From Lama guanicoe (Eukaryota), in contig MU053196.1 of the NCBI GenBank assembly GCA_013239625.1, positions 124,001-188,000 on the forward strand: a stretch of DNA of 64,000 nt, written 5' to 3'. Positions within the stretch are counted from its first letter, which is position 1. Each line of letters starts with the position of its first letter. The notes below the pieces were generated by a model. It was not told the origin of the DNA and made no database searches. It was given only the letters and a program-made list of their open reading frames with translations. The position numbers and the translations under genes were made by a program. Below, in pieces: positions 9,579 through 51,075 of the stretch.

Positions 9579-9671
9579 TATTTGTTTTTTTTTTGAATGG
9601 AGATACTGGGGATAGAACCAGGACCTCGTGCATGCTAAGCATGTGCTCTACCACTGAGCTGTATCCTCCCC
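9579..9671 (-). mobile_element. tRNA-derived SINE (camelid Vic-1-like) with target-site duplication
   Basis: Reverse strand shows A box tacagctcagtggtagagc, a B-box region and an A tail. TSD caaatcca(a/g)tggtttttaa at 9560-9578 and 9672-9690. Confidence 0.88.
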
Positions 9672-13452: not shown

Positions 13453-13550
13453 GTAGTAGCCGTCGCAGAGGCTGATGACTCTGCAGAATCGGAAGGTGTA
13501 ACTGACTCTCAGAAACGGAGAGAAATCCTTTCACGAAGACCCTCTTATAG
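13453..13550 (+). CDS. CREM: CREM exon E (kinase-inducible domain, first half; PKA site RRPSY, Ser codon 13543-13545)
   Basis: TTGTAG acceptor and TAG|GTAAGT donor, 98 nt. Encodes VVAVAEADDSAESEGVTDSQKRREILSRRPSY(R). Confidence 0.97.
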
Positions 13551-13695
13551 GTAAGTTAAGTCATGATACTGTCATGATACTTTTTCCAAAAAGGGAGAAT
13601 AATTGTGCATCAAATGGGTTCTCCCGTTGTAGCTTTTTCTGCTTTAAATCTCATTCATGCATCTTAATCATTTATACTGTCAAATTATATTTTAG

Positions 13696-13838
13696 AAAAA
13701 TACTGAATGAACTTTCCTCTGATGTGCCTGGTGTTCCCAAGATTGAAGAAGAAAAGTCAGAGGAGGAAGGCGTGCCCCCTCACGTGGCTGCGATGGCAGT
13801 GCCGACTAGCATTTACCAGACCAGCACGGGGCAATACA
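13696..13838 (+). CDS. CREM: CREM exon F (KID second half)
   Basis: TTTTAG acceptor after a 145-nt intron, donor ACA|GTATGT, 143 nt. Encodes KILNELSSDVPGVPKIEEEKSEEEGVPPHVAAMAVPTSIYQTSTGQY. Confidence 0.97.
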
Positions 13839-18952: not shown

Positions 18953-19086
18953 GAGGGAGGGTATAGCTCAGTGACAGAGTGTGTGCCTAGCACGCATGAG
19001 ATCCTGGGTTCAATCCTCAGCACCTCCATTAAAGATAAATAAATAAAAACCTAATTATCTCCAATAAAAAATTAATTAAAAAAAAA
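18953..19086 (+). mobile_element. tRNA-derived SINE (Vic-1-like) with 15-bp TSD, followed by (CA)n
   Basis: gggagggtatagctcagtg...cctgggttcaatcc...A-rich tail. TSD gaaatactccagaca at 18935-18949 and 19087-19101. Confidence 0.9.
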
Positions 19087-27120: not shown

Positions 27121-27379
27121 TTCAGTTGTTAATCAGTTGTTTTCTGCTTCTATGAGTTATGAAAAATATGTAGGGTTTATAACCACTTTGGTTTCTTAGA
27201 AACCTTGGACAGAACAATGATAAAGCAGCAGCCCTGTAACATGTCACTCTTCATGCTAAGGAGTTGTTTTTTTTTTGTTTTTTTTTTTTGCCGGAGCCCA
27301 ACTCAGCTGAATTTTATGTAAAAACGAGAAACCAGAGCACTCAGCTGGTTCGTCACAGGAAGGGTTGCTAGGGTTTGGT

Positions 27380-27534
27380 TTCGGGGAGCCGGCCTGTGAC
27401 AAAGCGCACTGACGGCAGCGCGGGGCCGGGGACGTCACGGTGACGCCAGCGCCCCCTCGCCCTGCGCGCGCCGCTGGCCTGGAACACTCGGCGCCGGCGC
27501 GCGGTCCGGCGGCGCGGTGCGCGCGGGGCCCGTC
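27380..27534 (+). promoter_or_regulatory. CREM: ICER (P2) intronic promoter with clustered cAMP-autoregulatory CRE-like elements
   Basis: TGACAAAG 27397-27404, TGACGGCA 27410-27417, GGACGTCA 27430-27437 and TGACGCCA 27441-27448, about 90-140 nt upstream of the ICER ATG. Confidence 0.88.
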
Positions 27535-27559
27535 ATGGCCGTGACTGGGGACGACACAG
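27535..27559 (+). CDS. CREM: ICER-specific leader exon, coding part (MAVTGDDT)
   Basis: GTCATGG Kozak context, ATGGCCGTGACTGGGGACGACACAG|GTGAGA. Phase 1, in frame with gamma and H; gives 120/108 aa with exon Ia. Confidence 0.95.
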
Positions 27560-28006: not shown

Positions 28007-28200
28007 TGGCGTCACGGCCTTTCCTGGAACCAGCGCGGCGGGGGCGGGAAGTCAGCCGCGGGCAGCCGGGCGGACACTGACGTCAGCCGGTCACGCAGGG
28101 CCTGAGTCACCCTGCCCTCCCGGCCGCCCGGCCGCCCGCGCAGGTGGGGCCCCGGTGCGCCCCGACCGCCGCTCGGCCTCGCCCGGACCTGGGGCCGCAG
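28007..28200 (+). promoter_or_regulatory. CREM: Second intronic CRE promoter and non-coding leader exon (smICER-like)
   Basis: TGGCGTCA 28007-28014, TTCCTGGAA 28021-28029, perfect TGACGTCA 28078-28085, TGAGTCA 28103-28109 and consensus donor CAG|GTAAGT at 28200/28201. Confidence 0.65.
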
Positions 28201-31200: not shown

Positions 31201-31729
31201 CGTGCTCAGTGCCACGGCAAGCTCAGGACAGACAGGCCCCTCCTGTCACCACCGGGGGTCTGATCATCGGTCACTGTGGAAGCTACCAAGATAGGTACGC
31301 ATCTGGCTGGGTGTTTCCTTCCTTTCTTCCTTCCTTCTTTTCTTCCTTTCCTCGAAACAAACACCTCTGACTAGTGAGGTTTTCACTTTTCTTGTTACCA
31401 GTCTGATGAGATTGTATCATTTGGTGATTTGAGAGCCTCCACCTCCATGGTCTCTTTTAAATTACATACACTGGAAAGGATATTTTGTAGTATCTTTTTG
31501 TAATTTATTTTCTAGGGATATAATAAACTCGAGTAGAAATTTTGCAAGTTTTTAAAGAGGTGTATTAAGTTAAATAAGAAAGAAGAGCCACACATTTTGA
31601 TCATTCTGTTAGAAGGGAAACTCCAGGGGAAAATATATTTATGGTTGCTGTCTGCCTTTTAACTAATATACCGTGTAAGCATGATGTGGAACATTGTCTT
31701 TCAGAACTTAAGGAAGGGAAGAGGAGGGG

Positions 31730-31940
31730 AACTAACATTTGCTGGATGCCTACCATGTGCCAGGCACTGTGCTAGACACTTTGACATACTTTGCAGGGTC
31801 TGTTGTGAGTATTACATGAGATCATGTGTCCCCATTTTACAGATGAGGAAACTGAACTTGCCCCAAGTCACATGGCTGGTAAGTGGCAGAGCTGGACTAG
31901 AACCCAGACTCCAAATCTCATGCTTTTTCTGCTGTACCGT
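31730..31940 (-). mobile_element. MIR SINE (antisense) containing exon gamma
   Basis: MIR hallmarks: ctaacattt...tgtgccaggcactgtgcta, ccccattttacagatgaggaaactga, acttgccc-aagtcaca...gtaagtggcagagc...gaaccca. Confidence 0.9.
31843..31878 (+). CDS. CREM: CREM exon gamma (36-nt cassette, DEETELAPSHMA)
   Basis: TTTTACAG acceptor and CTG|GTAAGT donor, phase 1-1. The peptide matches the known gamma insert. Confidence 0.95.
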
Positions 31941-32156
31941 GTTTAAAGCTCGCAAACAGAGGTATGAAGTTCCTGACCAGAACTGAGCATTCTAGGAGTT
32001 TTGTTCCCCATGAAATGTTGATACTAAACCTAAAGCTTTTTTTTGTATGTCAGGAGTTAGATGGTAGGAAACACACTGTAATTAGAACTCTTCTGCTTCT
32101 AAAATGCCAGGTTAGATGACTGGTATCTAAGGGAAGACTTAAATAATGCCTTTGGT

Positions 32157-32300
32157 GGGGAGGGCGTGGGTCAGCGGTAGAGCGCAGGCTTAGCATACCC
32201 ATGGTCCTGGGTTCAATCCCCAGAACCCCCTCTAAAAATAAATACATAAGTAAACCTAATTACCAACCCCCCACAATATTAAAAAAATTTAAGAAAAAAG
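32157..32300 (+). mobile_element. tRNA-derived SINE (Vic-1-like)
   Basis: ggggagggcgtgggtcagcggtagagcgc...ggtcctgggttcaatcccc...aaacctaattacc + A-rich tail. Confidence 0.88.
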
Positions 32301-33702: not shown

Positions 33703-33786
33703 GGGGGTGTTAGTATCTCAGTGGTAGAGCATGTGCTCAGCATGCACAAGGTCCTGGGTTCAATCCCCAGCCCATCCATTAAAAAA
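33703..33786 (+). mobile_element. tRNA-derived SINE (Vic-1-like, short)
   Basis: ctcagtggtagagcatgtgctcagcatgcacaaggtcctgggttcaatcccc. Confidence 0.85.
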
Positions 33787-35628: not shown

Positions 35629-35785
35629 CCGCCACCGGTGACATGCCTACTTACCAGATCCGGGCCCCAGCTACGGCTCTGCCTCAGGGCGTGGTGATGG
35701 CTGCGTCTCCGGGAAGCCTGCACAGCCCCCAGCAGCTCGCAGAGGAGGCCACGCGCAAACGAGAGCTGAGGCTGATGAAAAACAG
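35629..35785 (+). CDS. CREM: CREM exon H (common exon, start of basic region)
   Basis: TTGCAG acceptor and CAG|GTGAGA donor, 157 nt. Encodes AATGDMPTYQIRAPATALPQGVVMAASPGSLHSPQQLAEEATRKRELRLMKNR. Confidence 0.97.
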
Positions 35786-36539
35786 GTGAGACGCTCCATA
35801 GGCAGCAGGCAGCATGTGGGTGGCTGGGGGGCTTCTTAAAGATCACTTTTCTGGAACCGTTGCGCCCAGGTTGTGTGTTGTGTGGCATTTCATGTGGGCT
35901 TGTGCTCTGCATGTGCTGATGTTCTTCTGGTCAGAGTCCCCGCCAGGAAACCATCTCGGCTGCAGGAGGTGCACTGCTGTGTGTTTTCTGGTAGTGTCTA
36001 ACAGATACATTAACTTTTGTTAATAATAATGGAAAGACACATAAAGATTCATTTTTACTTGGTATTTACTTTGTGAAGTGGGTGATAATCTTTTAGCTGC
36101 TTTATAAGCAAAATAAGTTTGAGTGTGAGTGCAGAGTTTTCCGTCTCTTACACGTGGCTTCCTTTTATTTATTCTGTAACTTTGCTTTTTCTCTATTATG
36201 CTGAAACACATTTATTTTGGGAAATTCTGGCTGAGCACAAGTACACAGCAAGAGAGAGAATTAAACTCATGGCCAGCCCGCCACATGGAGACGCCTCCTG
36301 GTACCAGCATGTGCCCTCCCTGCCTCACATGTCCCTGCACATTTCATTGGCTGGAATGAGCTAAGAGACTCCCTGGCCACGAGGGACCCCGGGTTTCAGT
36401 TTCAGAGCCAGCCGAGAGGACGAGTGAGCAGCAGATGCTAAGTGTCACTGGGTCGCTCAGGGTCTGCTGAGCGAGTGCGCAGCGCTTGTCTCTGCCGTTC
36501 CTTTACCTCGCAGTGACTCTCGCAGGAGCACAGGTCTGC

Positions 36540-36630
36540 TCTTCTTACTTGACAGGTGAGGAACTGAGGTTCAGAGAGGGTCAGTAGCGAGCTGGTTAAG
36601 GTCACACAGCGTGAGCTGCAGTCGGGCCGT
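36540..36630 (-). mobile_element. MIR core fragment
   Basis: tttgacaggtgaggaactgaggttcagagaggg...aaggtcacacagc. Confidence 0.7.
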
Positions 36631-38556
36631 CTTCACCCAGGGCCCGTCCCCTGCACCAGCGCAGTCACCTCCAGGAGGCTCCAGCTTCGTGGAGAGTGCA
36701 GGCCTCCCTTGTCAACATGACGGGCCTCCTGTCCACTCTCTCTGAGGAGAGAGTGAACGCATTGGCGGCAGTCATAATGGAGATTTCGTGACATTTCTAC
36801 CAACCCAGCGACAGCTTTTATTTCAACAGCCATTTTTAAAAATGCATTCCACTTTGCCATGTGTTCCCCTCCATGTGAGGATGTGTCCAGACGAACACAA
36901 GGCCTGAAAATGGAGCTATTAATAGAAGAAACAGGTGTTTTCCATAGCTGAGACCTCCTTAGGAATGTACCACCTCCTGGTGTGACCGTCCAAAGCTTTG
37001 TGCTTGGAACATTCTGATTCTGGTAACATGCGTGCAGCGTGAGACACGGAACGTGGACGTGCACAGTAAATGGTGCACCTGGTGCCCGCAGCGCTGCGGT
37101 TAGATACTTAAACTTTCATTTAACAGTAACTTGTTCTGTAAAATGACTGTTTTCCTTCCAGATCTAGGATTTAATATAATGATTTAGTCATGAGAACCTT
37201 GGTATTCAGAACTATATTTTAGTTTCCTTGTGGAGGAGTTGAATTATGTTTCCAAACTGGCAAATGTATAAGTGTGCTTGGATTTATGGTGGACTTTGCC
37301 CTGTGAGTCACTGAGATGAGATGAATCTGATTTATCAGACTCAGGTCACTTTCACACTGTTAATTTTTCTGTTCACCAGTTGCGTAGCCGGAGAGCCCTG
37401 GGGGGGTCCCGGGGTGACAGCACTGTTCTTGGCTGGCAAGTTAGGCTTGATCTTTTCCTGTAGTTCACGGGGATTTCAAGGTCTCCCCTCTGCTGACAGA
37501 GGGGACTTCCCACAGAGAAAACAGATAACCAGCCGTGAGCGTCAGCATCCTAAAAATAAAACAAAGCTGTCCCAGTGTGCTACACGTGTCGCTCCGGGTT
37601 CGGAGTGGCCGCACTGCCAGCTGGCATTGTAGGACCCGGCACTGAGCCGAGAGCACAGGCTTTGTTTGTGTGTCTCAATTATCTGCTTCAATGTGACAGG
37701 CACCCCAAAGGCAGTTAATCTCAAATGAATACTCCAAAGCTGTTTTCAGGGGGTACATTCTACAGAGGAGTCAGCAATGTAGTTGCCACCCCCTGCCCCC
37801 AGGAGGAGAGAGCGAATGCTGGCTGCACCCGCCGTCTGTAGCGGGATGTGCGCGGCAGCGACGAGCTCTGTCCAGCTGTTTGTGTTGCTTTTGCTGCTGG
37901 TCGGTCTGTCCCCGGGCGTCTGCGGGGCTTGGTCCTTTCCAGCGTTTGGGCCGCCGTGTCCTCACGTCTGAGCTGCTGAGCGCGCGCTCTGTGCTCCCCC
38001 CACCAGCCCCCGGCTTCGGAGGCAGAGCCCTGCGTCCTGGTCTGAACGTGCGCGGTCTGCCTGTCGGCCTCCGAGTGCTGGCGTCCCCCAGCCTACAGCC
38101 TGGCCTGCGGCTTGTTGTGCCGAGGCTGAGCCTTGGGAGAATGGAATCCCCAATCCTGACGTTAAGGTTCCTGAGGTTTAACCCTTTCCCTCGTTTTTGA
38201 TCAAATAACATAACTCACAGTGATATCTCTGGGGCTCCGGGTGGACAGAAGTAGCTGAGAGAATTGAAAAGATCCGTGAACACTTTTGTAGAAATTCCAC
38301 GTGGGAATGAAGCCCTGCTGTTTTGGCCACTGAAGCCCATTGTGGCCACTGTGATCCCGGGACGTGAGCCCAAGGACGCAGGCTTCACGCCGGGCCTAGG
38401 GTGACCCACGGAGAGCTTGGCTGCCCCTGACCCGGGGCCCCACACAGACCTTACCGGGGAGGCCTGCCAGGCGGTTGAGTTTGGGGGGCAGACGCGGAGA
38501 AGCTCTGGATCGTGCTGGGAGGTGCCCTGTAGTCACCTGCCTTGTGTTGGTTCCAG

Positions 38557-50047: not shown

Positions 50048-50975
50048 CGAAGCCGGCCACTGAAGGAGGTCAGCACCTGAGCATCTGCGTGTGTGTTTGC
50101 TGAGTGAGGACACTGGAGGCTGGAGGGAGAGAATGAGGCTGGGGGCAGTGACAGCCGACTGGATGTGAAACTTTCAGCTTGTTTCCGTTTTAACCTGGGA
50201 GGTAAGCAGATAGGTTGATGTCCTGAAAATGAAACAAGAAAACCCACACAGACCCAAACTGAAAGGAAACCGTGGCTGGTGGAAATCTGTTCAGGAGTGT
50301 GATCTTCCGATAAATGGCTTTAGTTTCACGTCTCTAAGGATCAAAATTAGACTGAAATGCTAACTGAGCTAAAAAGTACTCGATAAACAGATGCGAGCGT
50401 GGACGTAGCCCCTCGTGGTGGTTTGCTCGGACTCCACGTGATATGTCCTGGGATGCTCAGCAGTGGAGTCTGACCCTCCTGTGGCCAGAGGAGCTGGAGG
50501 CCTGAGGGGCTCATCCTGGGCATGGAGGGGGCTGGGAGAGCCCTCTGCTGAAGGCGGGGGACAAGGGATTGCTTCAGACCTGAGTGCCTACTGGGAGGGT
50601 CTGCAGCCTGTGGGTGTTCCTCTCTGCCGCCGCCTTTTCTCGGCCCCCTTTATCCTTCCCAGCCTGGTGGGCAAAACTGTCCCTGTGGGCTTTGGTTCCA
50701 GGTGAAGATTTATTAGCTGCGCTGCATCCGTTAAGCTGCTGGACTGAGCGCGGGCTGTCTGCTCGGTGGTGGAGGGCCGGGGGTGAAGCCTTCCCGAGAC
50801 AGCGGTCCTCTGGGCGCCCGTCAGGGCTCTGAGCCCCGCTGCACTCGCTTGTCCGATTTCCTCTCATGGAGAGTCCCTGCTGCCATGCCCTCACTTCACC
50901 GATGAGGGTGCTGGATCTGGGGCAGTTGCCCAGGTTGTGCAGATCCTGGGCCTGGGTGGTGAGTCTTCAGCTCTC

Positions 50976-51075
50976 TCCCATTTTACAGGAGAGGAGGTTG
51001 AGCCCTGGAGGTTAAGAAATTCGCTCAAGCTCCATGGCTGGCTGGTGGCGGAGCTGGGGCCCCGCCTGTCCTCAG
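50976..51075 (-). mobile_element. MIR fragment
   Basis: cccattttacaggagaggaggttgag...gaggttaag...ggtggcggagctgggg. Confidence 0.65.

Follow-up and report, generated by a model that had tools for sequence, protein, structure and literature searches.

The gamma cassette exon of CREM in Lama guanicoe very probably derives from a MIR SINE that inserted in the antisense orientation, lost about 19 nt and was exonised as a placental gamma cassette. The evidence comes from the splice sites and frame of the exon, from the alignment of the whole exon to other copies of the repeat, from the lengths of those copies, and from the distribution of the gamma peptide among annotated proteins.

The gamma exon in the CREM locus

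The window, which is the whole 64,000-nt stretch analysed here, carries the CREM exon series on its forward strand.

~13534-13736, + strand: KID region of the CREM exon series (six-frame motif mapping)
21925, + strand: donor of exon G (six-frame motif mapping)
27535-27559, + strand: coding part of the ICER-specific exon X, the upstream partner exon (25 nt, phase 1)
31843-31878, + strand: CREM/ICER gamma cassette exon (36 nt, phase 1-1, (D/N)EETELAPSHMA)
35629-35785, + strand: CREM exon H, the downstream partner exon
~38560 and ~38940, + strand: two DNA-binding exons (six-frame motif mapping)

The Camelus and Vicugna CREM records show 100% identity over exon H. Exon X reads MAVTGDDT in the window and MAVTGDET in other mammals. 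The ICER promoter region (27330-27559) is GC-rich, has several CRE-like elements of imperfect sequence and lacks a perfect palindrome.

The gamma acceptor (...ttttacag) ends at 31842 and the donor (gtaagt) begins at 31879, with exactly 36 nt between them. This cassette, DEETELAPSHMA, is open in the CREM frame and is read as (D/N)EETELAPSHMA. It is symmetric, and the computed joins are free of stop codons both with it (X+gamma+H) and without it (X+H). Its inclusion adds 12 residues, acidic in character, together with an in-frame ATG. The original prediction had called this segment a 36-nt, stop-free CREM gamma exon with an internal Met; the splice sites, the frame and the annotated peptide bear out the first point, and the ATG at 31872-31874, the Met of SHMA, bears out the second.

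In annotated isoforms the gamma segment follows exon G (D...), exon F (N...) or exon X, and forms that skip it are annotated as well. At the annotation level, the camelid isoforms with gamma are P0059, P0060, P0105-P0108 and P0220 (Camelus). The exon had also been described as the cassette that separates gamma from non-gamma isoforms. It does separate them, but the names run the other way: ICER I and II carry the small exon gamma, and the I-gamma and the II-gamma forms are those without it, as given in a review (PMC3941242) that describes the four isoforms as in principle functionally equivalent.

The host repeat and its internal deletion

The repeat that hosts the exon, its functional sites and its relatives in the window are as follows.

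~31730-31942 (outer limits approximate), - strand: antisense MIR-type SINE copy hosting the gamma exon, core at 31829-31896 by profile
31829-31842, + strand: 3' splice site supplied by the repeat, a short pyrimidine tract and CAG; the same word is found in the 50976 copy and in L001 and L002, two metagenome copies picked by an exact 25-nt word, so that its sharing there was selected for
~31855-31856, + strand: point of the internal deletion of about 19 nt, which removed one ZNF768 anchor
31879-31884 (CTG from 31876), + strand: 5' splice site CTG/gtaagt, to be compared with CTA/gtaagt, the major MIR 5' splice site in PMC2394776
31895-31904, - strand: B-box-like site, a putative remnant of the tRNA-derived SINE head (relaxed pattern; one match on the minus strand and none on the plus strand within 31601-32100)
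36522-36649, - strand: second intronic MIR copy, undeleted and in the same orientation, with the full ZNF768 motif at 36572-36610 (profile and motif search)
50952-51075 (matched part 50976-51057), - strand: third MIR-like copy, in the same orientation, with a core 16 nt longer than that of gamma

A search of the window with positions 31690-31960 finds one significant second site, at 50976-51057 (E=0.0017). The profile built from the 50976 and 36540 copies alone, with the gamma locus excluded, matches 31829-31896 with E=0.001. Adding the two metagenome copies brings this value to 6e-8, which is partly circular because they were chosen by the exact 25-nt word. The acceptor, the donor and both halves of the exon all align to the locus-excluding profile, in agreement with the earlier claim that each lies within the repeat. 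The gamma exon is therefore made of repeat sequence and is not merely flanked by it.

The assignment to MIR is based on published motifs. The ZNF768 motif, GCTGTGTG-N20-CCTCTCTG, belongs to the consensus of all MIR types according to PMC6344866. Its reverse complement has one match in the window, at 36572-36610 in the second intronic copy, with both anchors exact and a linker of 23 rather than 20 nt; none of 100 shuffles contained a match. At the gamma locus one anchor is preserved at 6 of 8 positions, and the other falls in the deletion. The survey of Sela et al. (2007, PMC2394776) gives one major MIR 5' splice site, CTA/gtaagt, from which the gamma donor differs by one base, and it places 121 of 181 human MIR exons in the antisense orientation. 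The B-box-like site is on the minus strand, where the head of an antisense SINE would be expected, which supports this orientation. Rfam gave no tRNA match over this site (31904-31895) and nothing above the gathering threshold over the gamma exon. The hosting repeat spans about 210 nt, the full length of MIR being about 240 bp. By its resemblance to the element, segment 31730-31800 is presumably the MIR 3' tail; self-matches of this segment in the window search with 31690-31960 were not significant.

It is extremely improbable that the resemblance is due to chance, or that the repeat is not a MIR. Such a reading can point to the comparison set of four copies, two of them chosen by the exact 25-nt word, and to the behavior of a 20-nt word, whose three matches in non-mammalian collections (L003-L005) were chance matches and were dropped, so that short word matches alone mean little. 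Against it, the E values versus independent copies are 0.001-0.0017, the two halves of the exon are colinear with the repeat, and both the published MIR motif and the published splice site match. The presence of the gamma exon in an antisense MIR, as originally predicted, is supported by the profile, by the MIR motif in the sister copy, by the donor and by the minus-strand B-box-like site.

The 25-nt repeat word occurs in two metagenome contigs and in none of the viral or prokaryote genome contigs, and blastn against phage and plasmid sequences returned no further copies of the repeat. One of the metagenome contigs (L001:1-505) combines AT-rich sequence with a short MIR-like core and a GC-rich, bacterial-looking part, and is probably chimeric. 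The intronic MIR at 36572-36610, between exon H and the DNA-binding exons, is a candidate ZNF768 site. tRNA-like matches are found at 9598-9668, 18957-19028, 32160-32270 and 33707-33778, the one at 32160 being followed by an A-rich tail; they are probably young tRNA-derived SINE copies of a camelid family.

Compared with its relatives, the gamma copy is short inside the exon. Between the last base of ACTGA and the CACAnnGC anchor lie 13 nt in gamma and 35 nt in the 36540 copy, a spacing that becomes 32 nt with the published 20-nt linker. The difference between 32 and 13 nt gives 19 nt as the best estimate of what gamma has lost. All four other copies are longer inside the exon by 14-22 nt (50976, +16; 36540, +22; L001, +16, and L002, about +14, these last two counted by eye), and gamma aligns colinearly with 50976-51057 up to, and again after, a 16-nt gap that falls within the exon. 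Three divides none of the values 14, 16, 19 and 22, and the frame would therefore shift if the exon used these splice sites in undeleted form. Going by the MIR consensus, the lost segment may have contained an in-frame stop as well.

Both the deletion of about 19 nt and the retention of the corresponding segment in the 36540 copy had been proposed from the first reading of the DNA, and both hold. The further proposal, that the deletion made the exon in-frame, stands for the deletion; that this event was the cause is an interpretation of the lengths, and the deletion may have come before or after exonisation.

Distribution of the gamma peptide

The gamma peptide is present in human, mouse, tree shrew, many laurasiatherians, the two-toed sloth, manatees, dugong and golden mole. 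All four placental superorders are represented (Euarchontoglires; Laurasiatheria; Xenarthra, by Choloepus; Afrotheria, by Trichechus, Dugong and Chrysochloris). It occurs in 190 of the 359 proteins listed (placental or unnamed), with 9-11 of 11 residues identical, and four of the 11 positions are invariant in all 190. The protein searches covered the best 120 of 1460, of 476 and of 1198 matches, and the large gamma-bearing clusters are represented by 15 of 446 and 15 of 154 members. Armadillo, elephant, tenrec and elephant-shrew are uninformative, with gamma-less isoforms alone listed for them (one or two each).

Among the matches listed, gamma is found in none of 36 annotated marsupial proteins (11 genera; 11 proteins with the exon G-H junction), in none of four annotated platypus proteins, and in none of 12 proteins from one catfish. 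With a query blind to gamma, the peptide is found in 0 of 21 marsupial and 29 of 93 other exon-H-bearing proteins (Fisher p=0.0016, with rows that are not independent), six of the 99 other proteins being left out as they have no exon H. At the level of protein annotation, the distribution is thus the predicted one, with gamma in placentals and not in the marsupial and monotreme proteins. An argument from RefSeq isoform numbering, that no 248-aa form lies between consecutive marsupial isoforms, was discarded, as the gamma-bearing sloth has the same gap.

Two sets of records deserve separate mention. Residues 1-17 of koala CREM isoform X14 (P0355) include TCPRSQ, which resembles TCPKSH, the peptide read from the gamma exon in its +1 frame; this N-terminal peptide may come from a separate MIR-type exon elsewhere in marsupial CREM. 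Records from Bos javanicus (P0169, P0170, P0172, P0176 and P0391) give CREM sequence under the name of cyclin-Y isoforms, which suggests merged gene models or read-through.

The sloth model P0224, which extends into the upstream flank, and four read-through translations share the flank or flanks of the repeat and the same 12-residue length, a sign of a single insertion and a single deletion common to all of them. Six weak matches in the read-through search (P0582-P0587) are unrelated repetitive proteins and were dropped. The same MIR might have inserted earlier, in the therian or mammalian ancestor, and remained intronic in marsupials and monotremes, with deletion and exonisation confined to placentals. 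By the account in PMC6344866, MIRs were spreading both ahead of the mammalian radiation and in the course of it, and an unspliced copy would be invisible to protein data. The read-through relatives found are four, and all have the deleted form. This older insertion, a different timing within the favored explanation, has some standing but is less likely than not.

In sauropsids, exon H follows directly in 148 of 166 proteins, and in the remaining 18 the junction carries other sequence. Gamma-like inserts are found in eight of the 166 models, with scores of 10-26. Six are from birds and end in S[HQR]VA (loon, ibis, penguin, roller, seriema and pelican; P0467, P0468, P0477, P0488, P0493 and P0507), one is from a gecko (P0459), and one is a turtle-like protein (P0491). 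The inserts are 11-12 residues long, lie exactly at the gamma junction, and are identical to gamma at 3-6 of 11 positions. They raise the alternative that gamma is as old as the amniotes, as an ancient CORE-SINE or an ancestral exon common to birds, turtles and geckos that marsupials have lost or in which it is unannotated.

The exact junction and the length of the inserts fit this alternative, as does the occurrence of the bird insert after two different upstream exons, as expected of a cassette or of an alternative acceptor. Moreover, in simulated 13.4-kb introns with strict AG/GT sites and 36 nt between them, none of 300 reaches a score of 24 (maximum 18), and simple chance under canonical sites therefore does not explain the inserts. 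On the other hand, 3 of 40 simulated introns reach 24 when the splice constraints are removed, and the direct junction to exon H in the 148 proteins argues against an ancestral exon. The turtle-like, gecko and bird inserts also score -1 to 14 against one another and 18-26 against the camelid peptide, a pattern that gene models biased by a mammalian template would show. Finally, the end of the camelid intron reads ...FRFVA into exon H, so that the pyrimidine-coded bird ending LLLSHVA may be a read-through of the acceptor region. Descent from an amniote exon is accordingly judged very unlikely, and the sauropsid inserts are probably template-forced models or acceptor read-through.

Start codons, origin and significance

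The repeat supplies three ATG codons in and near the exon, and a candidate leader exon lies upstream.

28078-28200, + strand: palindromic perfect CRE at 28078, then an ATG-free stretch to a strong GTAAGT donor; candidate P6/smICER leader exon
31824-31826, + strand: upstream in-frame ATG in the intronic part of the repeat, 19 nt 5' of the acceptor
31843-31845, + strand: out-of-frame ATG at the first base of the exon, with a putative 34-codon ORF by computation
31872-31874, + strand: in-frame ATG, the Met of SHMA, with C at -3 and G at +4

The computed 34-codon ORF from base 1 ends at base 67 of exon H and overlaps two in-frame starts. A Met matching the ATG at 31824-31826 starts the sloth model P0224 and three of the four read-through translations, and with transcription starting in the intron this codon might give rise to an extended form. 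The gamma Met is the first residue of another sloth model (P0223, 102 aa), and the exon H Met that of a model of 95 aa. The gamma Met is kept in 186 of the 190 gamma-bearing proteins and replaced in four. The replacements by Val or Ile (P0231, P0233 and P0239 from Glossophaga, and P0178 from dolphins) are natural tests of the importance of this start codon.

As reported in PMC4787626, promoter P6, which lies downstream of P2, gives rise to a smICER transcript, and the smICER, ICER and CREM-Ib-deltaC-X transcripts have small proteins in common (PMC4787626, PMC4729809). From its sequence features, segment 28078-28200 is likely the P6/smICER first exon. The likeliest role of gamma, at about even odds, would be to adjust how long the short repressor isoforms are, where they start or how stable they are, and would not concern DNA binding.

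A more ambitious proposal, which we consider unlikely, is that the MIR acts as a placental switch of CREM translation and not as a spacer alone, with splicing of the SINE exon setting both the choice of small ICER protein and its amount. In transcripts that begin at the cAMP-inducible internal promoter, with a candidate leader (28086-28200) devoid of AUG, inclusion of gamma would put two MIR-derived AUGs first. The out-of-frame AUG at base 1 would open the 34-codon ORF over the gamma start and the first start of exon H, and the in-frame gamma Met would give a 102-residue repressor. If true, such a switch would be a placental-specific control on cAMP feedback, with its SINE origin itself unreported.

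The favored origin would proceed as follows. An antisense MIR SINE would have inserted into the intron of CREM that precedes exon H. An acceptor, CAG, and a donor close to the canonical form, GTAAGT, were already present in its core, as shown by homology to the other copies and by the published splice site. Undeleted, these sites would enclose about 55 nt and shift the frame. The deletion of about 19 nt left an open 36-nt exon of phase 1-1, which would then have become a tolerated cassette, before the split of the four placental superorders as the proteins show. The near-invariance of the peptide suggests purifying selection since then. Inclusion of the exon places an acidic spacer of 12 residues immediately upstream of the exon H/bZIP region and brings an additional in-frame start codon.

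Gamma can be compared with three known systems. The MIR exons of DMWD (alternative) and MYT1L (constitutive), orthologous in human and mouse, share with it placental conservation, high protein conservation and the major donor type (PMC2394776). In gamma, the exon consists of MIR throughout, as do its acceptor and donor, and a frame-restoring deletion has shortened it. Exon 5 of IGF-1, a MIRb exonisation, is likewise a mammal-specific, MIR-derived alternative exon in a well-studied regulator (PMC7786948). It forms a C-terminal tail with lineage-specific use, whereas gamma is an in-frame internal spacer and nearly invariant. The cryptic exon in FGB intron 1 also lies in an antisense MIR in which a small internal deletion favors exon use (PMC4615370). 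That exon is pathogenic and lies in a stable hairpin; in comparison, the RNA fold of the gamma region is ordinary, no better than shuffles (z=0.08), and a hairpin-type exon definition as in FGB was rejected for gamma.

The exon is known, and so is antisense MIR exonisation as a class of mechanism; the link between gamma and MIR was not found in print. No statement of it was found in the full-text papers searched, a scope outside which lie the catalogues by Krull et al. (2007) and by Lin et al. (2009), reportedly the main ones for MIR exons. The term 'CREM' has no occurrence in the main text of PMC2394776, PMC6924539 or PMC7786948. It is also absent from supplements of PMC2394776 (one of 13 files, a coordinate table, and hence weak), PMC2194731 (two files), PMC2203978 (two files) and PMC6924539 (one file). 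As given in PMC6924539, 789 human coding exons overlap MIR, so the gamma exon has probably gone unnoticed in genome-wide tables.

Protein-coding MIR exons conserved across placentals are scarce, and the human-mouse survey reports only four orthologous MIR exons (PMC2394776). The gamma exon belongs to a heavily studied transcription factor and regulator of the cAMP response, in which it defines half of the classic ICER isoforms. A MIR origin would date the split between gamma and non-gamma forms to the placental stem, with marsupials and birds as natural 'before' states for comparison. It would also illustrate a simple route from a SINE to a coding cassette, by one deletion between ready-made splice sites.
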